In this document: positions 20,322 to 33,467 of the stretch, one piece after another
How positions within the stretch are numbered: position 1 is the first letter of the stretch
How the letters are laid out: each line of letters starts with the position of its first letter
From: a virus
Length of the DNA stretch: 64,000 nt
Reading direction: 5' to 3' (one strand)
Virus record (IMG/VR): IMGVR_UViG_3300045988_099276
Location: 64,001 to 128,000 of that record
The notes under the pieces: model-generated
The model's input: the letters and a program-made list of their open reading frames with translations, nothing else
Told to the model about the DNA's origin: nothing
Database searches by the model: none
Program-made: the position numbers and the translations under genes

Positions 20322-21053
20322 TTAAATTTTTATCCACAACTTACATCTTGAATCTGTTGGCTGAGTAGATGAAACTTGAACTGAATATTCAGTGTTTGCA
20401 CTTCCAGCAGTAGTGGCATATTTAACTGATTGAGAACCAATATCAGCTGATGTAATACATTGGCCGTAATATGAATCGTCTGAGTTATATAGAGAAACAT
20501 TCGGAGTACCATTTAAACCTTTGACGCAAAAGGCACCACTCTTATTATGGTCACCAATAGCAGCATCATCGCCAACGACATACCAAGTATTGTTTGCGAA
20601 ATACGGTTCTAGCTTAGAAGGAAAATCACTGATTTGAGACTTTGTATGTGTATGACTAGAAGGCGTATATGTATTTGGCTTTCCAGATATATTATTCCAA
20701 GCGACAGCATTCGCAGTGGCGGCTGTAGTCGCTGTTGTGGCACTTCCTGCTGAATCAGCATATCCCGCAGACATTTTATACCAAGCACTAGAATTTAGCG
20801 CTCTTTTGTATAAATAAGATGATGCTCCGTCTGGAATAGCAATTTGAAATGGAGTGCCAATATCTGCATCGGTGAACACACTTGCCCATGTGCCAACGGG
20901 AGAAGATGCGTTGCCACCAGTTGACGGCACTCCCCTGACAACATAATAACCAGTTTTGGTATGATTATCTAGATTCGTATCAGTTGTTACTGTTTCTGTC
21001 AACAGCGGTATTTTAGAAAATTTACTACCATCAGAAAGATAAAGTTCAGCCAT
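20322..21053 (-). CDS. tail fibre protein E (HxH motif; conserved C-terminal QPT..CKLWIKI tag)
   Basis: MAELYLSDGSKF N-terminus is shared with fibres B and D. SSHTHTKSQISDFPS HxH motif. C-terminus VSSTQPTDSRCKLWIKI. No SD before the ATG. Confidence 0.65.
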   Translation of the reverse strand: MAELYLSDGSKFSKIPLLTETVTTDTNLDNHTKTGYYVVRGVPSTGGNASSPVGTWASVFTDADIGTPFQIAIPDGASSYLYKRALNSSAWYKMSAGYADSAGSATTATTAATANAVAWNNISGKPNTYTPSSHTHTKSQISDFPSKLEPYFANNTWYVVGDDAAIGDHNKSGAFCVKGLNGTPNVSLYNSDDSYYGQCITSADIGSQSVKYATTAGSANTEYSVQVSSTQPTDSRCKLWIKI

Positions 21054-21117
21054 TTAAATCAATTAAACTAGTTAATGTGGGCTTAAAGCCCCCCCCCCAA
21101 GAAGTGTAAGTTTGCAT
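21046..21117 (-). promoter_or_regulatory. leader mini-ORF with G10 tract (C-run 21089-21098 on +); its stop overlaps the fibre E start
   Basis: GAAAGGAATTTTT-ATG CAA ACT TAC ACT TCT TGG GGG GGG GGC TTT AAG CCC ... AAT GGC TGA. The TGA lies within ATGGCTGA of fibre E. A GGGC-TTTAA-GCCC hairpin uses the tract. Confidence 0.5.
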
Positions 21118-21134
21118 AAAAATTCCTTTCAATC

Positions 21135-22181
21135 TTAAATTTTAATCCATATCTTACATGTATTGCTAGTAGGCTTTGTGCTAGATATGGTTACAATGTC
21201 GCTCGCTGCCTTGGCATTGAGCTTTGTGTTCATTTCACTTTCAGTATAGTAGCGGTCATCGTGAGTGTGGCTAGAGTTGGCTTTGCCGTTTAATTTAGTA
21301 TTGATTTCGCTTTCAGTGTAATATCTATCATCGTGAGTGTGACTTGACGGAGCATACGTAGAAGGTTTGCCATTAACATTCCCCCATGACACACTATTGG
21401 CAGAACCAGCACTGCTGGCATATGCAACTTTACCAACATCATAACCAGTAGCTTGTGCAGTATATGCTCTTGTGTCCATTGCAGCTCGGGGTTCATCGTT
21501 CATTAACTGCCAAGAAGAGCCATTACCACCACGGGTGCTGTTTGCTAAAATTCGGATATTACACGAATTATATGTGCCAGTAGCATGAAAATATAAATCA
21601 GCATATCCAACAGTTGATTTAGCAGAATGTATTTTTAAAATAAATTGGTCTGGTTCATATCCATATCTACAAAGCCATTGAACGTTTCCATGAGTAGCCA
21701 CAGCGCTTTCAGATACATTATCATTGCGGAAACGGACTGCTAGAATGCCAAATCCACCACTTTCGTAACCAGAATCTACACACAATACAACGCTACCATC
21801 GAAAGAATTAGTTTTTGATTCAAGCTTTAAACAACGCCAATATGGTTTAGCAGCACTGCTTTGAGTAACATATCGGACAGTACCATTTAAATAATTAGCG
21901 ATATTAGCTGTACCAGAAATATTACATGATACAACATTTCCTACTGGATTATATTTAAAATTATCGCTATGAACTCTTTGATTATCTGCACTATTATTTG
22001 AAAACCAAACATGTCTTGCAGCATTGTCCGAAGCGGTACCATAACTTTTTACTTCTTTCGCGGCACCTCCTGCGGAATCTGCACCCGCATAATTATGGCT
22101 ATGACTAGCAGCTGCTGCTCCCACCATATCTGGCGTCCACTCTTTAAAAGACCCGCCACTGGGATAATACGCTTTAGCCAA
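21135..22181 (-). CDS. tail fibre protein D
   Basis: TTG start without an SD. MAKAYYPSGGSF N-terminus. Tandem SSHTHDDRYYTESE repeats. C-terminus ISSTKPTSNTCKIWIKI. Confidence 0.65.
   Translation of the reverse strand: MAKAYYPSGGSFKEWTPDMVGAAAASHSHNYAGADSAGGAAKEVKSYGTASDNAARHVWFSNNSADNQRVHSDNFKYNPVGNVVSCNISGTANIANYLNGTVRYVTQSSAAKPYWRCLKLESKTNSFDGSVVLCVDSGYESGGFGILAVRFRNDNVSESAVATHGNVQWLCRYGYEPDQFILKIHSAKSTVGYADLYFHATGTYNSCNIRILANSTRGGNGSSWQLMNDEPRAAMDTRAYTAQATGYDVGKVAYASSAGSANSVSWGNVNGKPSTYAPSSHTHDDRYYTESEINTKLNGKANSSHTHDDRYYTESEMNTKLNAKAASDIVTISSTKPTSNTCKIWIKI
21204..21347 (-). repeat. tandem 24-codon repeat inside fibre D
   Basis: SSHTHDDRYYTESEINTKLNGKAN / SSHTHDDRYYTESEMNTKLNAKAA. Confidence 0.8.
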
Positions 22182-22193
22182 TTAAATCATTGG

Positions 22194-22253
22194 CTACTGA
22201 TGCCCCCCCCAGCAGACCTCACTAAAGGTGCGCTGTGTTAAAATATTCTTCAT
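22194..22253 (-). promoter_or_regulatory. leader mini-ORF with G8 tract (C-run 22203-22210 on +)
   Basis: ATG AAG AAT ATT ... GTC TGC TGG GGG GGG CAT CAG TAG, ending 12 nt before the TTG of fibre D. It starts 7 nt after the fibre C stop (TAG TGA TAA T ATG). Confidence 0.45.
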
Positions 22254-22260
22254 ATTATCA

Positions 22261-23721
22261 CTATACCTTAATCCATAATTTACAAGTACTCGCGTTGGGC
22301 TGCGAAGAAGAAACGATAACTTCTTCTGGCCGCCAAGTGTTAGTGTCATTATCAGTAAGCGCAATAGTCGCATTGCCAGACTGGTTCAAAGTAAACGTAC
22401 CCTTTGTAGCGCCGTTCTGCGTAATTGTAATAGTACCATTGCCGACAGAAGGAATTGACGGTCTGTTAGAGATTTCAGACCAAGAATAGGAAGGTTTGCT
22501 TGAAGCCTTAGCCCAAGCATACACATCACTTGCTGGCATACTGGTAGGGAAATCTGTAATCTGGGACTTTGAATGAGTGTGTGAAGAAGCGGCGGCACCG
22601 ATACTAGAAGCTGTGATATTAATATTCTTGACTGCACTACCATCATATGCACCTTGAGAAGTACCATTTAAAGAAATGGTAAGCGCATTAGGATTCTTTA
22701 AAGAACTTGGAACAGTAGGAATAGTAGGCTTATTGGAAAGGTCATTATATGAGCCGCTTGTCGCAACGGTAGCAAAAGATGGCTTGCCAGATACCTGTGA
22801 CCAAGTAGGAGTATGATTGGAATCAAAATAATGCGCCCAAGCGCTCCAAGCGTTAACATTAAACTGGCGAATCCAAGTTTTCATAGCATTGGTATTGCCC
22901 TCAGTTAAAACTTGAACTAGATAACTGCCAGCTGTTCTTTTGACTTCAAGACCGAAAGCGTCTACGCCAGTGGGCTTATTCTTGACACTATTTGAACCAC
23001 CCGCAAAATAAAGGCCAACTGTTTTAGTATCATCAAGATTTTGTGTAGTAAGTTCTGTTACCTTTAGTGCGTTTGCGGTTGCAGCAGTAGTCGCACTGCC
23101 AGCACTAGCCGCATACTTTACACTCTTGGCAGAGTCAGCGGTATTATCAACATTACCTAGACCGACTTCTGCCTTAGAATATGAAGGTTTTGTGGCTGCT
23201 TTCGCCCATGCAGAAACATCTGATGCTGGCATTGAAGTCGGAAAATCTGTAATATCGGCTTTAACATGTTTGTGACCAGTATCAGACTTACCGTCAAGAG
23301 CAGATTTAACAACCTTACTCTGAACTGGATTGGTAGAATTAGTAACGAACGATGTATCTACAACTGTCTTGTTCGCGCCAGTAGCAACACCGTCAAGTTT
23401 AGCCTTATCTGCGGCAGACATAAGACCTGCGGCACTGGTAGTAGCATTGCCGTATACAGTATTTGAATCGGTAACATTAAATGTACTACCATCGCTACCC
23501 TTGAGGGTAATTGTATTGCCATTTTTGGTTAGATTATAAGTTGTATTTGTATTGATATTATCTTTAATCTGAATCAGAGAGGATGAAGAAATACCCATCC
23601 ACAAAGTGCCGGTATCGGTGGCAACATACAATGCACCGTCCAATACTTTATTTTCGGCAGTGAGTGCTTTGATATTAGGTTCTTTATCTCTGATAAATTT
23701 TACTCTTGCTATCTTGCTCAC
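22261..23721 (-). CDS. tail fibre protein C
   Basis: N-terminus VKFIRDKEP...ALYVATDTGTLW is shared with other fibres. Two HxH blocks (GHKHVKADITDFPTSMPASDV, SHTHSKSQITDFPTSMPASDV). C-terminus VSSSQPNASTCKLWIKV. Confidence 0.7.
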   Translation of the reverse strand: MSKIARVKFIRDKEPNIKALTAENKVLDGALYVATDTGTLWMGISSSSLIQIKDNINTNTTYNLTKNGNTITLKGSDGSTFNVTDSNTVYGNATTSAAGLMSAADKAKLDGVATGANKTVVDTSFVTNSTNPVQSKVVKSALDGKSDTGHKHVKADITDFPTSMPASDVSAWAKAATKPSYSKAEVGLGNVDNTADSAKSVKYAASAGSATTAATANALKVTELTTQNLDDTKTVGLYFAGGSNSVKNKPTGVDAFGLEVKRTAGSYLVQVLTEGNTNAMKTWIRQFNVNAWSAWAHYFDSNHTPTWSQVSGKPSFATVATSGSYNDLSNKPTIPTVPSSLKNPNALTISLNGTSQGAYDGSAVKNINITASSIGAAASSHTHSKSQITDFPTSMPASDVYAWAKASSKPSYSWSEISNRPSIPSVGNGTITITQNGATKGTFTLNQSGNATIALTDNDTNTWRPEEVIVSSSQPNASTCKLWIKV

Positions 23722-23736
23722 ATCCTTTCTGATAGA

Positions 23737-24498
23737 CTATTTAATAGAAGACCAAGTTAAATCATCTGGCGTAGCAAAATCAGAAGCATCATGATATGCG
23801 GCAGATTTTAAACCATATACTGCCACAGATTTATCTTTAACTTTGATTGTACCATTTGTAGTGCCAGTAGTAATAGATGTAACTGTCAAAACATCAGATG
23901 GCAAAATGCCGCTTGCAACGGTATCGACATATGCTTTAGTGGCAATGTCATTATCGTCATTGATGGCTTGACCAGCCGCGTATTTAATTTTACCAGATAA
24001 AGTACCACCAGTAAGAGGAAGATATTTCGCTTTCTCTTGGTCGGTATATGCCTTTGCATCTTTAAGGGCTTTATCTGCCCTTACTTGTGCGTCTGTTGAA
24101 GACGCACCAGATGCAGTCTTAATTGCTGAATTCATCTCACTCTTGGTTGGATAGTTCGATAGGTCGGTCTTAGAACCACCTAGCTTTTCAAACTTACCAT
24201 TAACCCAAAAATATTCAGTATATTCATTGCTGGATTCAGTCAAATCTGGCAACATATAAATTGTATTTTCTTCGCCAGTAGAAGGAAGAGTTGACCCTTT
24301 TGCAAGCACAACACGTTTAAGATGCGGCGCACCTGCCACTGCATTGGCAATAGCTGTGTTCATAGCATCCTTTTTAACATATTCTGCTGGAATTTTGTTA
24401 CTTGGAATGTTAATATCCCAATTAATATCAGAAGCATCTACGAGTTTGAAAGTGCCGTTATTCTTTTGTTTGATTTTATCAATAAGTTGAACAGGCAT
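23737..24498 (-). CDS. tail fibre/minor structural protein
   Basis: The TIYMLPD...YTEYFWVNGKFEKLGG block is shared with 25341..26987. LPLTGGTLSGKI...ATKAYVD is a fibre motif. Confidence 0.6.
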   Translation of the reverse strand: MPVQLIDKIKQKNNGTFKLVDASDINWDINIPSNKIPAEYVKKDAMNTAIANAVAGAPHLKRVVLAKGSTLPSTGEENTIYMLPDLTESSNEYTEYFWVNGKFEKLGGSKTDLSNYPTKSEMNSAIKTASGASSTDAQVRADKALKDAKAYTDQEKAKYLPLTGGTLSGKIKYAAGQAINDDNDIATKAYVDTVASGILPSDVLTVTSITTGTTNGTIKVKDKSVAVYGLKSAAYHDASDFATPDDLTWSSIK

Positions 24499-25316
24499 TA
24501 TTTCACCTCCACCGTAGTTGCACCTAATCCTGCATTAGTTGACCTATAGATATTATAAGAAGCGGTATAGCCACTTGCATTTGTGAAATCAAAAGTCTTT
24601 ACTTTGTTGAAGCCACCCTCGAAACCTCCAACATAAAATGCGGGAGTTCCAAAAGAAGCAGGAATAGCAAAATAAATATGCTGCTCAGCATTAGCTGTGA
24701 CGCTCCATGAACCAGTGCGGCCAGACACTAGATTTTTAGTAAGCCCTTTGACAAATGTCGCATCCATCCTAGAAGTATCTGTTATATTGCTCACGCCATA
24801 GTATTTACCATTTAAAAAGTAAATTGTAGTCTGCTTAGTAGATGTGGCTTTGCGAGCATCAGTAGCGGTCAAAGTAAATGCGGTCGTTGCGGTAAGAGGT
24901 GCCGCAAATGTAATTGCCGCATTCCCAGATTGTGTCTTATTGATTTCAAATGATTGGCTACCTGTTGTAATTGTCAGTTTAGAAGGTTGTTTGTTCAAAT
25001 TCCAAGAGAAGTTGGAAGATGGAAGACGAGAACCTATTTCAAGTGTGCCGCTATTGTTAGAAAAACTATTAACGGACATCGCTTTATAAATTGAAAGTGT
25101 GCCGTCAGAGGTAATATCAAAATCTCCGCTTGGCTTGATAATACCTGCAGCAGAACCCGTGGCAATTTTAATATCGCCACAGCTATATTTGATATTATTT
25201 TTCATGATACTCGTGGTATCTGAAAGAAAATAGATGCCGTTGGGGTCTATTTTGGTAGACCCCAACGCATCATACTCTGATTGCACGCCTGTGTAAAATC
25301 TAATATCAGCAGACAT
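24498..25316 (-). CDS. tail fibre/receptor-binding-like protein
   Basis: N-terminus IRFYTGVQSEYDALGSTKIDPNGIYFLSDT is a fibre N-terminal pattern. ATGA-type overlap with the downstream gene. Confidence 0.55.
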   Translation of the reverse strand: MSADIRFYTGVQSEYDALGSTKIDPNGIYFLSDTTSIMKNNIKYSCGDIKIATGSAAGIIKPSGDFDITSDGTLSIYKAMSVNSFSNNSGTLEIGSRLPSSNFSWNLNKQPSKLTITTGSQSFEINKTQSGNAAITFAAPLTATTAFTLTATDARKATSTKQTTIYFLNGKYYGVSNITDTSRMDATFVKGLTKNLVSGRTGSWSVTANAEQHIYFAIPASFGTPAFYVGGFEGGFNKVKTFDFTNASGYTASYNIYRSTNAGLGATTVEVK

Positions 25317-25340
25317 ACAATCTCCTTAATCTAATTTAAA

Positions 25341-26987
25341 TTAGAGCGTCTGCCATTCAATTAGGCTGTTAGCATATTCCTTCGCAGATTTAAGAGCGTT
25401 GTTAGCCTTGGTAGTAGCATCTGCGGCAGCAGCGTCAATAGCTTCGCTCTTCTTTGTGTCAGCATAAGTCTTAGCTTCAGAAAGAGCGCCAGCAGCGGAA
25501 CCAGAAGCATCAAAAGCACCACTGTTCTGATAGGCAGCAGAACCAAGACCCTTAACGGCAACGTCTGTACCCTTGACAGAGATTGTACCGTTAGCGGTAC
25601 CAGAAATAACGTCAGCAGCCTGTAGAGCAGTATCGGCCTTTGTACCCTGAGCAGAGGTAGCGAAAGCACCAGTGGCGGCATACGCGGCAGTACCTAGGCC
25701 ATGAACCTTGACGGGAGCGCCCTTAACGGAGATAGCACCGTTAACAGTACCCTCAACAACATCAGCAGCCTGTAGAGCAGAATCAGCTTTATCACCTTGG
25801 TCGGCAGTAGCATAATTCTTGGCTAGACCATCAGAATAAGCCTTAGCATCTTCAAGAGCCTTATCAGCCTTTTTACCAGCTTCGGTGATAGCAGCAGCTT
25901 GAGCAGCGTTAGCCTTTGTGGTGGCATCGGTTGCGGCAGCAGCAATGGCAGCATTCTTAGCAGCATCGGCCTTAGTCTGAGCATCGGCAGCAGCTACGCC
26001 CTTAGCGGTAGTAATAGCACTAGTTACTTGGTCTTTAGTGAAGTAATTGCTAAGGTCTGTATCAGAAGTACCAATGCGTTCAAAGGCACCATTGATAAGC
26101 ATATACTCAGTGTATACAGACTTATTAGAACCTGCGGCATCAGCGCTGCCAGAATCAGGAACCATATAAATTGTATCTTCATTGGCAGCAGAAACCTCGG
26201 GGAGCTGAGCAACGATTTCACGCTTTAGGTGATGTGCGTTAGCTACAGCAGAAGTGATATGGCTATCAACTTCGGTCTTTGTATAAGCATCTCCGATACC
26301 ATAGCCAGCAAGAGTAGTAGCCTTGTTAGCTTTTTTATCAATTTCAGCCTGTAGAGCAGTCTTTGCGGCACCAACCTGACGGGTTGTCTCAGCAGCAGCA
26401 GCTTCGATAGCTTCTGTTTTCTTGGTAGCAGAATCAGCCTTGGCATCCTCTAGAGCCTTATTGGCTTTAGTAGTAGCGTCTGCGGCAGCGGCTCCAATAG
26501 CAGCCTGCTTAGCATCAGCAGCAGCTTTCTTGATAGAGCCTTCGCCCTCACCGTTAATAACGCCAATAGCAGCTTCATTAGCATTAGCTTTGCCCTCAAC
26601 AGCGGTAACGCGGTCAGCTAGAGCACCTGTATTAAGATTAGCAATAGTATCCTTAACATAATCGGCAACAGACTTAGCAGTAGCAAGCTCAGCGGCAGTG
26701 CTAGCATCAGAAATAGTAGTAGCCTTGGGAAGAACTACGGTCTGAAAAGCAGAGCCATCATAAAAACGAACTTCACCAGTAGTCTTATGGACATAGAGGA
26801 CATTCTGCTTAGCCGTATCGGTTGCAGGGAAAGCATCAACAGTCTTGTAAACGCCACCAGAGAAGCACTGGTCACCCTTGAAGATTTGGTTGACACCGTT
26901 ACCGATAAAGTACAGAGTATTGGGGTCTTTTACAGCAAGAGAGTTATACTTTGCAAGGTCGGTAGCAATAAATTTTACTTGTGCCAT
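25341..26987 (-). CDS. Ala-rich repetitive fibre protein
   Basis: N-terminus MAQVKFIATDLAKYNSL...NTLYFIG. Four copies of AADATTKAN.AL.(D/S)AK(A/E)Y, repeated TVNGAISVKGAPVKVHGLG / TANGTISVKGTDVAVKGLG, and the IYMVPD...YTEYMLINGAFERIG block. Confidence 0.65.
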   Translation of the reverse strand: MAQVKFIATDLAKYNSLAVKDPNTLYFIGNGVNQIFKGDQCFSGGVYKTVDAFPATDTAKQNVLYVHKTTGEVRFYDGSAFQTVVLPKATTISDASTAAELATAKSVADYVKDTIANLNTGALADRVTAVEGKANANEAAIGVINGEGEGSIKKAAADAKQAAIGAAAADATTKANKALEDAKADSATKKTEAIEAAAAETTRQVGAAKTALQAEIDKKANKATTLAGYGIGDAYTKTEVDSHITSAVANAHHLKREIVAQLPEVSAANEDTIYMVPDSGSADAAGSNKSVYTEYMLINGAFERIGTSDTDLSNYFTKDQVTSAITTAKGVAAADAQTKADAAKNAAIAAAATDATTKANAAQAAAITEAGKKADKALEDAKAYSDGLAKNYATADQGDKADSALQAADVVEGTVNGAISVKGAPVKVHGLGTAAYAATGAFATSAQGTKADTALQAADVISGTANGTISVKGTDVAVKGLGSAAYQNSGAFDASGSAAGALSEAKTYADTKKSEAIDAAAADATTKANNALKSAKEYANSLIEWQTL

Positions 26988-27053
26988 GTAACATCCTTTC
27001 TTTTACATCTTGCAATACATATATATTATAAGCGCATTTGCGCATATAACCAA

Positions 27054-27485
27054 TTAAGATTCCAACTGATTCCATTCAGTTAGATTTGAAACCATAATAT
27101 ATTCTTTTGTGGCCGCAGACCATTTATAAGTAGCTTTGTCGGCAACATATAGTGTCTTTGGATTCCCTTCTTTTGGAAAATCTAGAACGCTTGTGGCAAA
27201 CACGATAGGCTCTAGATTGTCTGGAGTCATTTGCTGCCAAGAGCCATTTGAAAAATTCCACATGACGTTCGTAGAAGTGACGTAATAATATCCTTCAATG
27301 ACAGCAGTATATTTAATTCTGTCTTCTTCTGTGGCAAATGTCTGAATTGTCTTGAATGGATAGCGACCGCCATTGAAATCTAGACAAACTGTGCCGCCGT
27401 CAGTTACAAAAATAATATTGCCGTCACGCACTGGGAGCTTTGAGAGGTTCTTCGCGCTAACAGTGTAGAGGTTAGTATAAGTCAT
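27054..27485 (-). CDS. small fibre/receptor-binding-like protein
   Basis: N-terminus LYTVSAKNLSKLPVRDGNIIFVTDGG is a fibre N-terminal pattern. Abuts the upstream gene. Confidence 0.5.
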   Translation of the reverse strand: MTYTNLYTVSAKNLSKLPVRDGNIIFVTDGGTVCLDFNGGRYPFKTIQTFATEEDRIKYTAVIEGYYYVTSTNVMWNFSNGSWQQMTPDNLEPIVFATSVLDFPKEGNPKTLYVADKATYKWSAATKEYIMVSNLTEWNQLES

Positions 27486-28307
27486 TTAATCACCCTCCCC
27501 TACAAGTTTATCGAAGTCTATCATTTCAAGGTGCGGAGTTTGAATATTTCTATCAATATATTCTTTAATTGTAGAAATATCATCTGTAAACGTAATGCCG
27601 CATTTATCAGCATCTAGTTTTGAATCAATGCGGGCATCGACAATCGCCAAAGATTTCTTAGCTTCTTCCAGAGCTGCATCGGCTTTATTGCCAATTTGCT
27701 CAACACGTTCCATAGCTTCGGTAGCCTTTTTTGCCGCATCGTCTGCCTTACTAGCAGCCGCATTAGCTGTATCTACTGCTTCTTTTGCATCGACCTTTAC
27801 CTTGCTAAACTCAAGCAGCATGTCTTCAAATTCAATTTTCTGAGCAACCATCTGCTTTTTCATTTGGTCACCGATACAATTTAGACGAATAACTGCATTC
27901 TGGAATAGCGTGAAATCATCAGAAACTACAAAAGAAGAGCCGTCATTTGGGTCTGATAAAACGTGTACGATGAAGTTTGTAGACTGAGCAATAGAAACGC
28001 TGTCTACTAATTCAATGCAGCATAGAACATCGCCTTCGAGCAACATAGCTTGCGGCCATTTGATTTCCCAGATAATTGGGTCATCATTCGTCTGCGTGAA
28101 GACATTATATCCCTTAATCTTCTTTTGGCGATGGAACCAACTCAGATATACTTTAGTCTCAGGAGTAATTTGAGCAGCAGCTTCTTGGTCAAAAATAATC
28201 CTAAAAGTACGACCGTTCGCATCCGCGCCACCAGCTACAATAGGGTCTTTAATATCTTGGTCAAGAGACTTTAAATTGACTGTAACTGTTTTCAATTCCT
28301 GACTCAT
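27486..28307 (-). CDS. BppU-N-like baseplate/fibre-anchoring protein (tentative)
   Basis: The N-terminal beta domain (GGADANGRTFRIIFDQ...VYLSWFHRQ...GDVLCCIELVD) resembles lactococcal BppU_N. Ala-rich coiled C-terminus. Confidence 0.4.
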   Translation of the reverse strand: MSQELKTVTVNLKSLDQDIKDPIVAGGADANGRTFRIIFDQEAAAQITPETKVYLSWFHRQKKIKGYNVFTQTNDDPIIWEIKWPQAMLLEGDVLCCIELVDSVSIAQSTNFIVHVLSDPNDGSSFVVSDDFTLFQNAVIRLNCIGDQMKKQMVAQKIEFEDMLLEFSKVKVDAKEAVDTANAAASKADDAAKKATEAMERVEQIGNKADAALEEAKKSLAIVDARIDSKLDADKCGITFTDDISTIKEYIDRNIQTPHLEMIDFDKLVGEGD

Positions 28308-28841
28308 TTATTCACTCCTTTCATTGTTCTTTTGGCTTACAATAAATTGTGGATTGGAAAGATTGATTCTCGGTAGTTCGCGTATCTCTTCCATTAAGCC
28401 ATCAATGAATGAGTTGCCGCCTGCCGCTTTATAATATAAATATCTACGCTCTAGAGATTCTAGGTTAAGGTCATCAATAGCCTTGATTTCATAGCAAAAA
28501 TAGTGATGCTTGTCAATGATATAACTGCGAGAATTTTCCTGCAATCTTTCAAGAGTAAGTTTTTCATGCTCTTGGAGTGTTTTAATATCATTCGATTGGT
28601 TGCTAATTTCTTGGCTAAGATTTTTAACGTCTGCTTGCAACGAAGCAATACTTTCCACAATCTCAGAGTGCTTTATATCTTTAATTGTCTGATAGTTGAA
28701 ATACTTTTTTAATTTATCATAACAATATTCCAATAGCTCACTTAAAAATTTAAAAGCGACAGCTAAAGTCACAACTAGCATAACGATAGCCCCAAAAGAG
28801 TATTGCGATACCAGTTGCGATAAAGCATCCATTCTCGGCAA
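28308..28841 (-). CDS. membrane-anchored coiled-coil protein
   Basis: TM segment FGAIVMLVVTLAVAF followed by a coiled coil. Start is either TTG 28841 or ATG 28832. Confidence 0.45.
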   Translation of the reverse strand: MPRMDALSQLVSQYSFGAIVMLVVTLAVAFKFLSELLEYCYDKLKKYFNYQTIKDIKHSEIVESIASLQADVKNLSQEISNQSNDIKTLQEHEKLTLERLQENSRSYIIDKHHYFCYEIKAIDDLNLESLERRYLYYKAAGGNSFIDGLMEEIRELPRINLSNPQFIVSQKNNERSE

Positions 28842-28910
28842 TATCCCTTCTTCTCTACATAATCTATATAATATGAAAATAATTTGTATTTGATTTTAGG
28901 AATTTGCCCA

Positions 28911-28943
28911 TAAAAAAACGAGGGAAACATAAAGTTTCCCTCG
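28911..28943 (-). terminator. rho-independent terminator
   Basis: On the - strand: CGAGGGAAAC TTTAT GTTTCCCTCG followed by TTTTTTT. Confidence 0.75.
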
Positions 28944-29008
28944 AATTAATAAACTATGTCTAGGAGATTAACAAAATTTGATATTATGCTGCACCTCCTA
29001 TCATATAA

Positions 29009-29395
29009 CTAGGCTGTGCGGAAATAGATATTAAAAGCCCTGTACTTTGGGCGGTTGTCAAAAGGTTGATTACCGCCTGTATTTTCCATCGAATCGTTTG
29101 GTGGATTCCAGCTTCTAGAACCGTTAAGAGCAGCTTTAAAATAGTTTTGTGAATTGCCAGTAAGCCATTCACCGAATCCAGCAAGCACGTGGTTATGTGA
29201 TGGCATTTGGTTAATTGTAAGTTTAATAGAGTTTGTGCCACCTGTTGTATTTGGCGTGCCGCAACAAATGAACGTGTCATTATCGAGCTTTGTCCATGTT
29301 CCGCCAATGGAATCTGCTGGCGAGACTGAATTGTTTGAAATAAAGACTGACCCAACTGGGTAGACAATATCCATGAGGTTAACGTAGTTAGACAT
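29009..29395 (-). CDS. tail-collar-domain (MdpB-like) small protein, paralog 1
   Basis: MSNYVNLMDIVYPVGS...SPADSIGGTWTK...QMPSHNH...NTGGNQPFDNRPKY...FRTA. Confidence 0.6.
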   Translation of the reverse strand: MSNYVNLMDIVYPVGSVFISNNSVSPADSIGGTWTKLDNDTFICCGTPNTTGGTNSIKLTINQMPSHNHVLAGFGEWLTGNSQNYFKAALNGSRSWNPPNDSMENTGGNQPFDNRPKYRAFNIYFRTA

Positions 29396-29413
29396 ACGCC
29401 ACCTCGCTCAGAT

Positions 29414-29806
29414 TTAAGCTGTACGATACCAGATAAAGCAAGTTGTATAGGGCGGCAGATTGTTGTGTGCTTGCCCCCCCCCAGTATTCTTTGCAGCATT
29501 ATTCCAATCTGGATTACCATCATTCCACGCAGGAGAATTAGTTGCAAAAAGTGTACGATATGTTGTTGCATTTCCACCGTTAACAACAGCAACAACAATG
29601 CCATGTCCATGAGACGGCATTTCATCAATTGTTAACGTATGCTTTGCTTCTCCGCCTGTTTGATTTGCGGTATTAGCTCCATAGAGGAAAGTCTTAATTT
29701 TCGTCCATGTACCACCAATAGAATCAGCAGGTGATGTTGCACTCATGCTCTGATAGATTGAGCCTACTGGATATACGATATCCAATAGATTTACAAAATT
29801 ACTCAT
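29414..29806 (-). CDS. tail-collar-domain small protein, paralog 2 (contains a coding G9 tract)
   Basis: MSNFVNLLDIVYPVGS...PADSIGGTWTK...EMPSHGH...NTGGGQAHNNLPPY...YRTA. The GGG triplet is encoded by nine consecutive G. Confidence 0.6.
   Translation of the reverse strand: MSNFVNLLDIVYPVGSIYQSMSATSPADSIGGTWTKIKTFLYGANTANQTGGEAKHTLTIDEMPSHGHGIVVAVVNGGNATTYRTLFATNSPAWNDGNPDWNNAAKNTGGGQAHNNLPPYTTCFIWYRTA
29474..29482 (-). repeat. G9 homopolymer inside a coding sequence
   Basis: Reads AAT ACT GGG GGG GGG CAA on the - strand (C9 on +). Confidence 0.95.
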
Positions 29807-29850
29807 TTATATCCTTTCTAATTTAATAGAAAGAATATTATAAAATCTTC

Positions 29851-30303
29851 TTAGGCTGTTCTCTTATATACATTTAAAGAATAATGATAAGGAATATGCT
29901 TCTGCTGCTCGACTAATTGCCCATTTGAGTCTATTCGCCAAATGTCTTTAGTCCACAAATTCCAACCAGTATCACCACCATCTTTACCACCAACTGACAA
30001 TAATTGCCATAGATTACCAGCGGCAGCATTAGTATTCCAAAAACCAATACCCGAATATTGTTCCCTGTCATGATGCCAACCCACAACATTGTGCTGATGG
30101 TCTGGTATGGCTAGCTGAGAAATTATATTGCTACCAGAAAAACGTCCAGCTACGTTATAGGTATCACCACTTGCCGCAAGCAAACAATTTTCAATTTGTG
30201 TCCACGTACCACCAATAGAATCAGCAGGAGAAGTAGCATTTGTACTAATATAGATACTTCCTACTGGATAAATAATATCAAGAAGATTTACAAAATTAGA
30301 CAT
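29851..30303 (-). CDS. tail-collar-domain small protein, paralog 3
   Basis: MSNFVNLLDIIYPVGS...PADSIGGTWTQ...IPDHQHN...YKRTA. Confidence 0.55.
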   Translation of the reverse strand: MSNFVNLLDIIYPVGSIYISTNATSPADSIGGTWTQIENCLLAASGDTYNVAGRFSGSNIISQLAIPDHQHNVVGWHHDREQYSGIGFWNTNAAAGNLWQLLSVGGKDGGDTGWNLWTKDIWRIDSNGQLVEQQKHIPYHYSLNVYKRTA

Positions 30304-30342
30304 GATAAATCACCATGCCTAGAACAGCCATTGAAGAAGAAG

Positions 30343-30399
30343 CTACATTACTGTAGCCTCCCCCCCCCAATGACTGTGATTAGTCATTAAGTTTTTCAT
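30343..30399 (-). promoter_or_regulatory. leader mini-ORF with G9 tract (C-run 30360-30368 on +) flanked by two hairpins
   Basis: GAAAGGATATT-ATG AAA AAC TTA ATG ACT AAT CAC AGT CAT TGG GGG GGG GAG GCT ACA GTA ATG TAG. Hairpins are AATGACT/AGTCATT and GCTACA-GTAA-TGTAGC. Confidence 0.45.
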
Positions 30400-30434
30400 A
30401 ATATCCTTTCGTTTAGATATTATGATTTTAGACT

Positions 30435-30818
30435 TTAAGCAGTTCGCACCCAAACTTTGCAAGCATATGAATAAGGATAATAATCCTGTCCACCACCAGC
30501 ATCACCAGTATTACACCCTTGAGGATAGTTTTGTGCGCCAGCACTGCCTGAATCTTCACTATAGTCTTTACGAACAATATTAGGATTACCGTAATTTGCT
30601 GTAACATATTGAGCGTGTGCGTGAACTGGCATCTGTTTAACGCTAATAGTCTTACTACCAGTATAACCTACAATATCATCATATGCGGCCAAACATGCGC
30701 CATCTTTAATTTGAGTCCATGTACCGCCAATAGATGATGCAGGTGAAATACCGCTAGCAGTGATATATATACTGTTTACAGGATAGATAATATCTAGAAG
30801 GTTTACGAAATTGCTCAT
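30435..30818 (-). CDS. tail-collar-domain small protein, paralog 4
   Basis: Strong SD (TAAGGAGGTTGAATA-ATG). MSNFVNLLDIIYPVNS...PASSIGGTWTQ...QMPVHAH...GDAGGGQDYYPYSY...VRTA. Confidence 0.6.
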   Translation of the reverse strand: MSNFVNLLDIIYPVNSIYITASGISPASSIGGTWTQIKDGACLAAYDDIVGYTGSKTISVKQMPVHAHAQYVTANYGNPNIVRKDYSEDSGSAGAQNYPQGCNTGDAGGGQDYYPYSYACKVWVRTA

Positions 30819-30975
30819 TATTCAACCTCCTTATTTGGGAGGTTATCTAAAATCATAATATCAAATTGATTTATAGATTCTAAGCTACCGCAGTAGCCCC
30901 CTAGAGAGGTCAATTCATTAAACTTATTCACATAAAACTCCTTTTCTTTCTCAGAATTATATTCTATATCTATAT

Positions 30976-31010
30976 GAAAAAAGGGCAAAACCCCTAATAG
31001 GATTTTGCCC
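30976..31010 (-). terminator. rho-independent terminator after fibre B
   Basis: On the - strand: GGGCAAAA TCCTATTAGGGG TTTTGCCC followed by TTTTTT. Confidence 0.7.
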
Positions 31011-31019
31011 AAAACTATA

Positions 31020-31838
31020 TTAGATTTTAATCCACAATTTACAAGTAGAGGATGTAGGCTGAGAAGATGATACAGTGATAACATCATTTGCCGCATAATT
31101 GGAAGAAGAAGTATATGCGGCGCTACCAAGACCTAACCATTTCCTATATTCACCTTGTGATACGTCTTTAATTTTTCGTTCATCGTTCATACCAAGAGCA
31201 TACTTAAAATCGGCAGATGTAAATCCATCACCAGCATAACCGATTTTAATACCTTGATTAGTATTATTATAATCCGCTATCTCAATAGCTTTATCTGCTG
31301 AACCTGCACTTGTAGCTTTACCAGTAAGATTGCCTTTAAAATTATTAGCTTCAATCGTTGAATACGCAGTATTCGATGTATAATTACAAAACTTATATGT
31401 AATACCAGTAGTCCCACCATCTGATGCATCAGAGTCGGCATTTCTATAATTAAAATAACAAGTAGGTTGCTTACCACCAGAAAAGTTAATTTCATTTTGA
31501 TGAGTATAAATTACATTTATACACTTATTAGCGGTACCAGCTGAATTAGCATAATTTACTGACTTACTAGAATCTGCTGTATTATTGACGTTATTGATAC
31601 CTAGATATTGCTTTGCCGCATCTAGATTTACATCTTTAATATGATTGCCAGTTGAACTATATCCTGCAAGACAACCTAAATTCTTTTCAGCATCTTCTTG
31701 ATTTAATCTTAAAGATTCTGCTGCAAATCCTATTTTAATTGTTCTACCGGTAGGTGCATTATAATCTCGCACACCATCGGCTTTAGAAGGGACAAATTCA
31801 GAAAAATTCGTCCCATCGCTCACCATAAAATCAGCCAC
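31020..31838 (-). CDS. tail fibre protein B
   Basis: GTG start without an SD. MADFMVSDGTNF N-terminus. C-terminus VSSSQPTSSTCKLWIKI. Confidence 0.65.
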   Translation of the reverse strand: MADFMVSDGTNFSEFVPSKADGVRDYNAPTGRTIKIGFAAESLRLNQEDAEKNLGCLAGYSSTGNHIKDVNLDAAKQYLGINNVNNTADSSKSVNYANSAGTANKCINVIYTHQNEINFSGGKQPTCYFNYRNADSDASDGGTTGITYKFCNYTSNTAYSTIEANNFKGNLTGKATSAGSADKAIEIADYNNTNQGIKIGYAGDGFTSADFKYALGMNDERKIKDVSQGEYRKWLGLGSAAYTSSSNYAANDVITVSSSQPTSSTCKLWIKI

Positions 31839-31852
31839 ATCTATCAGCTAAG

Positions 31853-31897
31853 TTATCTAGCGGGGCAGATGCCCCCCCCCAGAAACGTATTATTCAT
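31853..31897 (-). promoter_or_regulatory. leader mini-ORF with G9 tract (C-run 31872-31880 on +)
   Basis: TAAGGATGTAGAT-ATG AAT AAT ACG TTT CTG GGG GGG GGC ATC TGC CCC GCT AGA TAA, ending 14 nt before the GTG of fibre B. A GGGGC-ATCT-GCCCC hairpin uses the tract. Confidence 0.5.
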
Positions 31898-31907
31898 ATC
31901 TACATCC

Positions 31908-33467
31908 TTAAATTTGTACCCACAGTTTAACATGTTCTTCTGTTGGCTTACTCACGCCAACATAAACAGTACCAACATCATCTGCAAGTTTACCATTGGT
32001 CACAGCTTTGCTTGCAATTTTGCCTGATGAAACAGCTCCATCGGCAATCTTAGCCGCAGTCACTTTGCCATTACCAATAGTCGTAGCCATTGTAATAGGA
32101 CTTGCCGTATTAAAACTTGTAGCAGATGTTGTAATATCTCCGTTCAGTGCGACAGTATTATTAAACTTGTTCGCAGATTGAGCATTTGTAGCGCTAGTTG
32201 CATTACCTTCTACATTGCCAGTAAGAGTACCAACAATCTTATTAGCATAAATATAATTCCACTTTGCACTAGAGGAACCAAGAGAATAAGAATTTGTAGC
32301 GCTAGGAACGATATTCTGACCAGTTAGAGAACCTGTCAGCGTGCCGCCAGATAGTTTTAAATAACTCGCATCGTGATTATGGTTAGCGGTTGCAGCGCCG
32401 ATATTAGCACAAGTAAGATTGACATTGCCTGTGCGGTAATTGCTTTCCGCATTACCCTTAACGCCAGTGACCTCGCCAGCAACTTGCCATGTACCGTCTC
32501 CACGAAGGAATTTGTTCTGACTTCCAACCGTAGGAGCAGGAACAAGACCAGAGTGACCAGCTGCATTGGCAGTGGCAGCTTTCATGACTTCTGGTTTAGT
32601 TGTATCTATATCAAATGAAATATCAGCAGAACCATTGAAGCTAAATGTCTGTCTACGCGAAGCTGATGTAGTCCCATATGTCACTCCAACACTTAAACTA
32701 TGACCAACTTTACCAGCAGTGGTCGCATTAGTAGCGTTATCGGCGTTTGCCGCATGACTTGCATTAAGTGCCGTACCAGCTTTGTACTCTTGGTATCCTG
32801 CATCAGAATTTAACCTAGCGTCATCAACGACAATATACATGATGCCAGTATCGTCTTGAATAACGCTATCGCCAGTCTGCACTTGCGTATTAGTTAATTG
32901 GAAACGTGCAGTTTTATTTGCAACATGGACTAATCGTTCTAATGCACCATGTGGAATTGTGTTTAAAGGTAACACTCCAGTGACACTTGCGGCATCAATT
33001 GATGGAATTGTAATAGAGATATTTCCAGAACCATCAAAATTAGCACTACCAGTACCACCATTATTACCACCCTTAACACTGATTGAACGTGCATTCTTTA
33101 GCTTCGTAGCTGTATCGGCGTTACCAGTGACATTACCAGTTAGGTTTCCCGTGAATCCGCCATTACCAGTAACCCTGCCAGCGAATGTAGTAGGAGACTT
33201 AACTGATTGCGCATTAACAGTTGTCTTATCTAACTTATTGTTCGCATTGTCATTAACAGCTTTTACTGCTTTTGGTGTCGCGGCAACAACACCTGTAGCC
33301 GCGCTATCTGTTGCATTTGTCGCGTCTGAAAGCCAAACCTCACCGCGTTTATTATTGGTAGCATCTGGCGCAACGTAAATCGGTCTATATGTTTTAAGCG
33401 TAGGGTCATAGACTTTTGCAACAAAATTATTTTTCATCGTAGAATCATTTGGATTACCTTTAGCCAT
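31908..33467 (-). CDS. tail fibre protein A
   Basis: Strong SD (AAGGAGGTGGCAA-ATG). KRGEVWLSDATNATDSAATGVVAATPKAVKAV fibre N-terminal motif. GNLTGNVTGNA repeats. C-terminus VGVSKPTEEHVKLWVQI. Confidence 0.7.
   Translation of the reverse strand: MAKGNPNDSTMKNNFVAKVYDPTLKTYRPIYVAPDATNNKRGEVWLSDATNATDSAATGVVAATPKAVKAVNDNANNKLDKTTVNAQSVKSPTTFAGRVTGNGGFTGNLTGNVTGNADTATKLKNARSISVKGGNNGGTGSANFDGSGNISITIPSIDAASVTGVLPLNTIPHGALERLVHVANKTARFQLTNTQVQTGDSVIQDDTGIMYIVVDDARLNSDAGYQEYKAGTALNASHAANADNATNATTAGKVGHSLSVGVTYGTTSASRRQTFSFNGSADISFDIDTTKPEVMKAATANAAGHSGLVPAPTVGSQNKFLRGDGTWQVAGEVTGVKGNAESNYRTGNVNLTCANIGAATANHNHDASYLKLSGGTLTGSLTGQNIVPSATNSYSLGSSSAKWNYIYANKIVGTLTGNVEGNATSATNAQSANKFNNTVALNGDITTSATSFNTASPITMATTIGNGKVTAAKIADGAVSSGKIASKAVTNGKLADDVGTVYVGVSKPTEEHVKLWVQI

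Follow-up and report, generated by a model that had tools for sequence, protein, structure and literature searches.

The DNA considered here is a window of 64,000 nucleotides (nt; positions 64,001 to 128,000 of IMG/VR virus record IMGVR_UViG_3300045988_099276) that belongs to a human-gut metagenome contig of 146 kb (ENA ERZ916335, run ERR321583). Its G+C content is 37.7%, the minus strand carries the genes at 15-62 kb, most of which have strong Shine-Dalgarno (SD) sites, and a region within it encodes tail fibres and a cluster of Gp10_C collar paralogs. The window holds five cassettes in which a short leader open reading frame (ORF) precedes a fibre or collar gene, four with a long run of G and one whose run has decayed to G5, together with a single G run lying in frame inside a gene. 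A preliminary description of this DNA had recognized four such leaders and proposed that they are homopolymer switches acting through translational coupling; four are indeed present, but the fifth, at 30818-30945, was overlooked owing to the decay of its tract.

Runs of six or more C or G are few in this window. There are only five, all of them 8 to 10 long with none of 6 or 7, and on the plus strand they appear as C10 at 21089-21098, C8 at 22203-22210, C9 at 29474-29482, C9 at 30360-30368 and C9 at 31872-31880. All five read as G on the coding minus strand and all lie within the 21.0-31.9 kb fibre region. From base composition we would expect about 0.1 C runs of eight or more in the entire window, and the earlier statement that five such runs on one strand are beyond chance is therefore sound.

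Four of the runs are contained in mini-ORFs extending from ATG to stop at 31897 to 31853 (leader A), 30399 to 30343 (leader D), 22253 to 22194 (leader G) and 21117 to 21046 (leader F), exactly where the preliminary description had placed them on the coding strand. Each cassette is small and modular, about 80-130 nt in size, and has an SD and start codon, 4-15 sense codons and a G8-G10 run read as glycine codons, 3′ of which are a small hairpin using the last few G of the run, two frames that close within about 6-26 nt, and a third frame whose first stop overlaps the fibre or collar start in the form TAATG, NTGA or NTGNNTRA. AAGGA lies upstream of three of the four leader ATGs, and the fourth begins 7 nt past the stop of the gene for a fibre of 486 amino acids (aa). 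In each of the four leaders one register of the three (referred to here as long, or ON) has a stop that ends at +8 when the downstream start is numbered from its first base (GTGGCTGA, ATGTCTAA, TTGGCTAA and ATGGCTGA), the overlap taking the form NTGNNTRA, and the remaining two (OFF) stop 5-44 nt ahead of that start. As sequenced, the G10 tract of leader F is in the overlapping register; the others are each a single G away from it, leader A needing G9 to become G8, leader D needing G9 to become G10 and leader G needing G8 to become G9. These details of registers, leader SDs and tract lengths agree throughout with the preliminary description.

None of the four genes fed by these leaders has an SD, whereas 20 of the 24 other genes of the region do (hypergeometric P = 0.0034), a disparity that had been claimed for three of them from the first inspection. 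We considered whether a leader ATG might be the true start of a fibre at some tract length, and this is rejected since stops block all registers in the four leaders. The leaders can therefore never fuse with the genes that they feed, and any effect on those genes must go via translational coupling.

The fifth leader, B, has its upstream stop at +1 and is fixed in the long (ON) register. An ATG-TGA start-stop overlaps the GTG start at this leader. Given the terminator-like hairpin and promoter-like site at 30961-31010, leader B would open a new transcript, and since terminator-like hairpins bracket the collar genes, the collar cluster is predicted to be a transcription unit of its own that starts with this leader. 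The remaining G run, at 29474-29482 in collar paralog 3, is a classical intragenic contingency tract. At G8 or G11 it leads into an alternative-frame ORF on the minus strand (28984-29628), whose 214 codons span all of collar paralog 4, to give a product of 273-274 aa; the translation of this ORF resembles out-of-frame junk, yet so long an open frame is unusual in AT-rich DNA.

Table 1. Features of the fibre and collar region (window coordinates; registers are given by tract length).
Feature	Coordinates	Strand	Details
519-aa tail fibre gene	31908..33467	-	Phage_fiber_2, PHROG tail fibre; own strong SD AAGGAGG; leader A begins at its stop codon
Leader A	31831..31909	-	SD AAGGA 31905-31909; ATG 31895-31897; G9 31872-31880
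Leader A hairpins	hairpin 1 31862-31875; hairpin 2 31831-31851	-	hairpin 2 over the start
Leader A registers	31853-31855 (OFF stop); 31831-31833 (overlapping stop)	-	OFF stop TAA as sequenced; G8/G11 lead to TGA overlapping GTG 31836-31838
272-aa fibre-like gene, fed by leader A	31020..31838	-	GTG start, no SD; C-terminus ..CKLWIKI
Intrinsic-terminator-like hairpin and T-run after 272-aa gene	30983..31010	-	promoter-like site then at 30961-30988
Leader B (decayed)	30818..30945	-	SD AAAAGGAG 30938-30945; GTG 30929-30931; G5 30897-30901
Leader B ORF	30818-30820 (stop)	-	37 codons; ends with TAA overlapping ATG 30816-30818 (TAATG); ON register
Leader B anti-SD	30838-30844	-	AACCUCC, pairs with SD GGAGGUU 30824-30830; leader ORF reads through anti-SD
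Collar paralog 1, fed by leader B	30435..30818	-	127 aa, Gp10_C
Leader D	30296..30408	-	SD AAGGA 30404-30408; ATG 30397-30399; G9 30360-30368
Leader D registers	30343-30345 (OFF stop); 30296-30298 (overlapping stop)	-	OFF stop TAG as sequenced; G10/G7 lead to TAA overlapping ATG 30301-30303
Collar paralog 2, fed by leader D	29851..30303	-	150 aa, Gp10_C N-terminal part; weak GGTGA site only
Collar paralog 3	29414..29806	-	130 aa, Gp10_C; in-frame G9 29474-29482 (GGG GGG GGG) ahead of QAHNNLPPY
Second terminator-like hairpin and T-run, other edge of collar-paralog cluster	28919-28943	-	
486-aa fibre gene	22261..23721	-	stop 7 nt ahead of leader G ATG
Leader G	22174..22253	-	ATG 22251-22253; G8 22203-22210
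Leader G registers	22194-22196 (OFF stop); 22174-22176 (overlapping stop)	-	OFF stop TAG as sequenced; G9 leads to TAA overlapping TTG 22179-22181
Leader G start hairpin		-	AGCCAAU/AUUGGCU, contains TTG
348-aa fibre gene, fed by leader G	21135..22181	-	TTG start, no SD
Leader F	21046..21128	-	SD AAGGA 21124-21128; ATG 21115-21117; G10 21089-21098
Leader F register	21046-21048 (overlapping stop)	-	ON as sequenced: TGA overlapping ATG 21051-21053
243-aa fibre gene, fed by leader F	20322..21053	-	ATG start, no SD

Relatives were fetched from IMG/VR and ENA/JGI metagenomes with the 519-aa and 486-aa fibres as queries, yielding about 60 related contigs with fibre identities of 78-96% and one relative at 45%. 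Their loci contain 207 distinct G runs of six or more, and only two C runs of seven or more, both in distant loci. A leader was defined as an SD and start codon no more than 70 nt upstream of a G run, with the stop of one register overlapping the start codon of a reading frame of 80 aa or more; overlap was accepted at +1 (TAATG), +4 (NTGA) and +8 (NTGNNTRA). By this definition 111 of the 207 runs are distinct leaders, each with exactly one register ending at +1, +4 or +8, a geometry that the screen itself requires of all 111. They fall into about nine unrelated families of 3′ halves and lie upstream of four protein families with the N-termini ADFMV.., [AS]ELYL.. and AKAYY.. (fibres) and SNFVN.. 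(Gp10_C collars), and just two leaders, in contigs L016 and L021, are visibly broken.

In the representatives of all nine families the overlapping register is open and the other two are closed early. For each we shuffled the spacer between tract and start, preserving dinucleotides and conditional on the position of the overlapping stop, and scored the pattern in which the ON frame is open and both OFF frames are closed at least 4 nt before the start. The probabilities per family range from 0.02 to 0.19, with a product of 5e-10 over the nine families and 2e-4 over the four of the window. The comparison with related genomes, a check suggested in the preliminary description, thus finds that tract lengths vary and that the frame rule is kept.

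Four further tracts in relatives (L079:6169, L084:10732, L019:12064 and L184:10062) are of a different form, with G8-G10 directly after a fibre stop and no SD-preceded leader start. An ATG without an SD is found 8 nt ahead of the run in L019 and L184, and at all four sites long CU-rich anti-SD hairpins follow which mask a strong SD.

The small hairpin formed with the last 3-5 G of the run is present in every family (in the window at 31862-31875 and 21082-21092, for example) and also in unrelated phage contigs; it might promote DNA slippage or pause ribosomes, among other roles. A second hairpin containing the start codon occurs in families a3, d3, g3 and e3, an anti-SD:SD hairpin in families b3 and h3, and only weak structures near the start in families c3 and f3. 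The fed genes have no SD, or have their start or SD inside a hairpin, the SD of collar 1 being paired with an anti-SD. An alignment of 16 variants shows the start-masking hairpin of family d3 still paired in L083, the sole relative with a TTG start, despite two double substitutions there.

The leaders thus have a common architecture that is conserved among relatives, with tracts that are polymorphic in length, and we consider it probable, from the pattern of the sequences, that they are contingency (phase-variation) switches in the form of portable leader cassettes that act via translational coupling. The frame rule in nine families and the fed genes with absent or masked SDs support the coupling that had been proposed at the outset. 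Re-initiation after termination, by ribosomes moving in either direction, is an established process. Slippage of the DNA polymerase during phage replication would gain or lose one G and so reset the register of the leader heritably. In the long register the ribosome would melt the masking hairpin, terminate on the start codon and re-initiate, such that the gene is ON; in the other two it would stop upstream with the start still masked, and expression would be OFF or very low. The fed gene would have no usable ribosome-binding site of its own, its SD being absent or its start or SD being buried in the second hairpin. Polarity, mediated by Rho after early termination (PMC12360218), could add to the effect.

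The prominence of RNA structure raises an alternative in which the length of the G run exerts frame-independent control through RNA structure or antisense pairing, with an anti-SD in cis or a small RNA in trans, as in the RepG control of tlpB in Helicobacter pylori (PMC8295292). Leader D lends itself to such an account, in that the segment at 30290-30412 forms an extended, imperfect hairpin (-46 kcal/mol, z = -6.65) in which the G run is paired with CUUCUUCUU and the SD/ATG region of the leader with the surroundings of the collar-2 start, a second hairpin masking the ATG; so too do L079, L084 and L019, whose G tracts are followed by long anti-SD hairpins rich in CU, a leader start codon being absent. 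Partners of this kind in cis are nonetheless restricted to some families, most (a3, c3, e3, f3 and g3) having neither a CU-rich partner nor an SD to unmask, and the mRNA-sense strand of the 64-kb window contains no C run of six or more and no Rfam family matches any leader. Nor does pairing explain the strict three-frame logic. RepG-type systems resemble these leaders in that a G run of variable length in an mRNA leader tunes the downstream gene, but there the run is untranslated, acts by antisense pairing and gives a graded response without a period of three, whereas here it lies inside an ORF with frame-specific stops. We regard this explanation as very unlikely.

Heritable switching by way of the reading frame requires that tract lengths change, and among the 111 leaders they are distributed as 6 (4 leaders), 7 (8), 8 (19), 9 (52), 10 (22), 11 (5) and 20 (1), with a mode of 9. 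At individual sites in the relatives the range is 6-11 for leader A, G6-G11 for leader B, G8, G9 or G10 for leader G and G8-G10 for leader F. The G20 tract, at the leader A site of L017 (L017:11558), may reflect either genuine expansion or faulty assembly. Identical flanks of 300 nt on either side accompany different lengths (9/11, 9/10 and 8/11), in keeping with the hypermutability that the first inspection had supposed; A/T runs of seven or more, taken as a control for variability, are too few to inform. As assembled, 33 of the 111 leaders are ON, 53 would need one G fewer and 25 one G more. About 70% are therefore OFF in consensus assemblies, as a consequence of the predominance of G9 whatever the ON length of the family.

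A comparison of two assemblies from run ERR321583, the ENA MEGAHIT assembly, which corresponds to the window, and that of Logan, covers leaders A, B and D and collar 3, the tracts of leaders G and F having matched only the contig of the window itself. Over 2.7-3 kb the sole difference is at 29474-29482, G9 in the former and G11 in the latter (contigs L257 and L263, position 2122/2487), with the consequence that collar 3 is called as a 274-aa protein. In relatives, both ON and OFF forms of the in-frame tracts of collar paralogs occur. Homopolymers are error-prone, and a tract that differs between two assemblies of the same reads could raise the suspicion that the runs are polyG miscalls of sequencing or assembly. 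The runs are internal, however, with unique flanking sequence, and are limited to one strand and one gene class within a conserved architecture of SD, ATG, hairpin and stop; dozens of assemblies, made independently and for different projects, have them at homologous positions, and this conservation rules out such an artefact, to which we give virtually no credence.

The same length distribution bears on a second possibility, that slippage is not heritable and occurs in decoding, with the RNA polymerase stuttering or the ribosome shifting frame on the G run beside hairpin 1. Each genome would then produce a fixed small fraction of long-register products, and the leader would set stoichiometry so that accessory fibres are made at low copy. 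It would suit such a process that G9 predominates irrespective of which register is ON and that every tract has a hairpin at its 3′ edge, as frameshift stimulators do, and low-level frameshifting is known on a run of 7 G in herpesvirus thymidine kinase (PMC5009743). The shift required from G9 is -1, +1 or 0 depending on the family, however, and no single direction of slippage can serve them all; moreover, near-identical genomes differ in tract length, and the in-frame tracts in collar genes of the same phages act as ordinary contingency loci at the DNA level. Decoding slippage seems to us unlikely as the principal explanation, although it may coexist with heritable switching.

Comparison of the leaders also reveals a history of exchange. 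Leader 5′ and 3′ halves have recombined exactly at the tract or hairpin 1 in L002, L011, L025, L170 and L173, about 31 nt past the stop of the 519-aa fibre (corresponding to window 31872-31880), and from 0 to 3 fibre cassettes follow that fibre among the relatives. Five fibre genes of the window have near-identical C-termini (..QPT..CK[LI]W[IV]K[IV], with ..HVKLWVQI in the 519-aa fibre), each followed directly by a leader or by the end of the array, at 20322-20381, 21135-21180, 22261-22300, 31020-31060 and 31908-31940 on the minus strand; such likeness is unusual in what is normally the variable, receptor-binding part of a fibre.

It could accordingly be argued that the modules of tract and hairpin are mainly recombination joints for swapping or deleting fibre cassettes and that the frame pattern is incidental. 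In relatives, six different downstream N-termini follow one and the same 5′ leader half (MNNT...), the hairpin of L173 is chimeric exactly at the tract (CATCTG|CGGTAG), genomes differ in how many fibre genes separate the 519-aa fibre from the collar cluster, and all fibre genes end in ..CK[LI]W[IV]K[IV] just ahead of the leader. Joints alone leave unexplained why an SD and start codon come before every tract, why one frame is open and two are closed in nine families, and why stops overlap the starts of fed genes whose SDs are absent or masked. We think it distinctly improbable that recombination is their main role, and more likely that it is a second use of the same cassettes, and not an alternative to switching.

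Several observations weigh against the leaders being coupling switches. The proportion in the ON register, about 30%, is that expected at random, and there is no sign of population-level selection on register; and of the four tracts compared between the two ERR321583 assemblies the intragenic one alone showed a difference, with leaders A, B and D identical. Some upstream frame ends at +1, +4 or +8 in 9 of 33 ordinary genes of the window, so that overlap alone is common, for which reason we gave weight instead to the conditional shuffle test. The conserved N-termini MA[DEK] and MSN account in part for the +8 stop, which is found as well in the 519-aa fibre (ATGGCTAA) and in collar 3 (ATGAGTAA), both of which own an SD. 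Support from covariation is thin outside family d3, with one-sided changes only elsewhere. In L079, L084 and L019 the G tract and its hairpin occur without an SD-preceded leader start codon, and these leaderless tracts point to a possible additional role of the G run that is independent of frame. Finally, as the OFF stops lie just 5-44 nt ahead of the start, some re-initiation may persist in the OFF registers.

Variation of homopolymers in phage receptor-binding proteins is not in itself new. Sørensen et al. reportedly found, in a 2021 study in Cell Rep, that the tract lies inside the reading frame of the receptor-binding protein and that its OFF form yields a truncated protein. PMC12823448 and PMC10877375 cite Sørensen 2021 for hypermutable polyG tracts in the genes for receptor-binding proteins of Campylobacter Fletchervirus phages. 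The present phage is like these in having G8-G11 runs in tail-fibre or receptor-binding genes, the length of which would switch single receptor-binding proteins to give mixed virions, and the tract at 29474-29482 is of the same kind. It is unlike them in that four or five tracts lie in separate mini-ORFs unable to fuse with the gene. A tract in the frame of the receptor-binding-protein gene itself is absent in the four leaders and present only in collar 3, and the four leaders are therefore not members of the intragenic Fletchervirus type, although they would serve the same purpose.

The phage lineages are also unrelated. The window encodes NrdD and a DnaE-type DNA polymerase whose match, a distant one, is YorL of Bacillus phage SPbeta (38% identity), and its Amidase_2 endolysin is kin, again distantly, to endolysins of phages that infect Gram-positive hosts; the host of the phage is of Gram-positive type. 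Neither the region, by megablast, nor a 508-aa structural ORF, by tblastn, has a match among 50,697 phage records, and no close relative was found in GTDB genomes searched for a prophage or host, the best match being 50% over 78 aa in Blautia difficilis.

Other contingency loci share some of these attributes. The polyG/C tracts of Campylobacter jejuni have a modal length of 9 and a range of 8-11, G8 tending to gain and G11 to lose a residue (Bayliss et al. 2012, PMC3401435), and the leaders are like them in modal length, in the occurrence of ON and OFF alleles among isolates and in a tract near the 5′ end of a translated region; but those loci belong to cells, and their tracts lie in the gene itself or in a promoter, and a dedicated leader ORF with a stop/start overlap is not described for bacterial contingency loci in the literature searched. 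T-even and other coliphages have contingency loci with reversible, high-rate homopolymer mutation and bet-hedging (Gomez, Barrick & Waters, bioRxiv 2025, PMC12633550), which are likewise phage-encoded homopolymers, but consist of A/T, are 6-9 long and lie inside coding sequences irrespective of gene class, with no leader architecture and no link to coupling.

The nearest parallel in translation is the lysis gene of MS2. From the work of Kastelein (1982) and of Adhin and van Duin (1990), its expression is said to need ribosomes that leave the coat frame and terminate beside the L start. The downstream start in MS2 is likewise without an SD or masked, and the frame of the upstream ribosome decides, but the frame change there is a rare translational error, whereas here it would be a heritable change of DNA length in the mini-ORF. 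Searches of full-text literature returned no description that joins phase variation with translational coupling, leader peptides, upstream ORFs or re-initiation. The preliminary description had not recognized the arrangement as a described system, which appears correct for the leader ORF and coupling architecture, but not for polyG phase variation of phage receptor-binding proteins, which is already published.

The cassette is not confined to these relatives. A scan of IMG/VR with the pattern AAGGA-N4-9-ATG-N11-41-G9+ identified at least 88 distinct loci; among the matches listed, 37 have classical in-frame tracts near the 5′ end and 51 are unfused to a long ORF. The stop-start offsets of these 51 peak at +4 (9 loci), +8 (8) and +1 (3), with other out-of-frame offsets at 0-4 each, and the unfused leaders come from unrelated viral contigs of 26-53% G+C. 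Tail or tail-fibre PHROG matches lie downstream in five of eight scan loci tested, including another Gp10_C member. Leaders with the order SD, ATG, short ORF and G9+ can be seen in scan contigs L264-L380, as at L282:6132, L295:9579, L296:6342 and in L341. This small sample of scan loci suggests that the cassette is widespread.

A broader view, on which we are evenly divided and lean slightly to doubt, is that this is an unrecognized general cassette of tailed phages, in which a polyG mini-ORF turns a one-nucleotide slip into ON/OFF coupling of any gene behind it. Five or six receptor-binding proteins might then be toggled independently to give tens of virion phenotypes per lysate, the cassettes doubling as joints for the shuffling of fibres and having either arisen or spread among human-gut phages of several unrelated lineages. 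If true, it would be a third mode of action for simple repeats beside in-frame and promoter-spacer tracts, in which the repeat chooses where the upstream ribosome terminates, and a cassette so small and modular is a potential stochastic switch for synthetic biology.

There are also consequences for how such genomes are read. Gene callers mis-annotate these loci, giving fibres wrong downstream starts and calling the frameshifted collar gene as a 274-aa protein. If single-G slips do switch fibres, one database genome would represent many phenotypes, and the assembled tract length would give the state of each fibre. In ecology as in therapy, phages are limited in practice chiefly by their host range, and if the leaders and the intragenic tract switch as proposed, a lysate would contain a mixture of virions that differ in their sets of receptor-binding proteins, a form of bet-hedging on host range.

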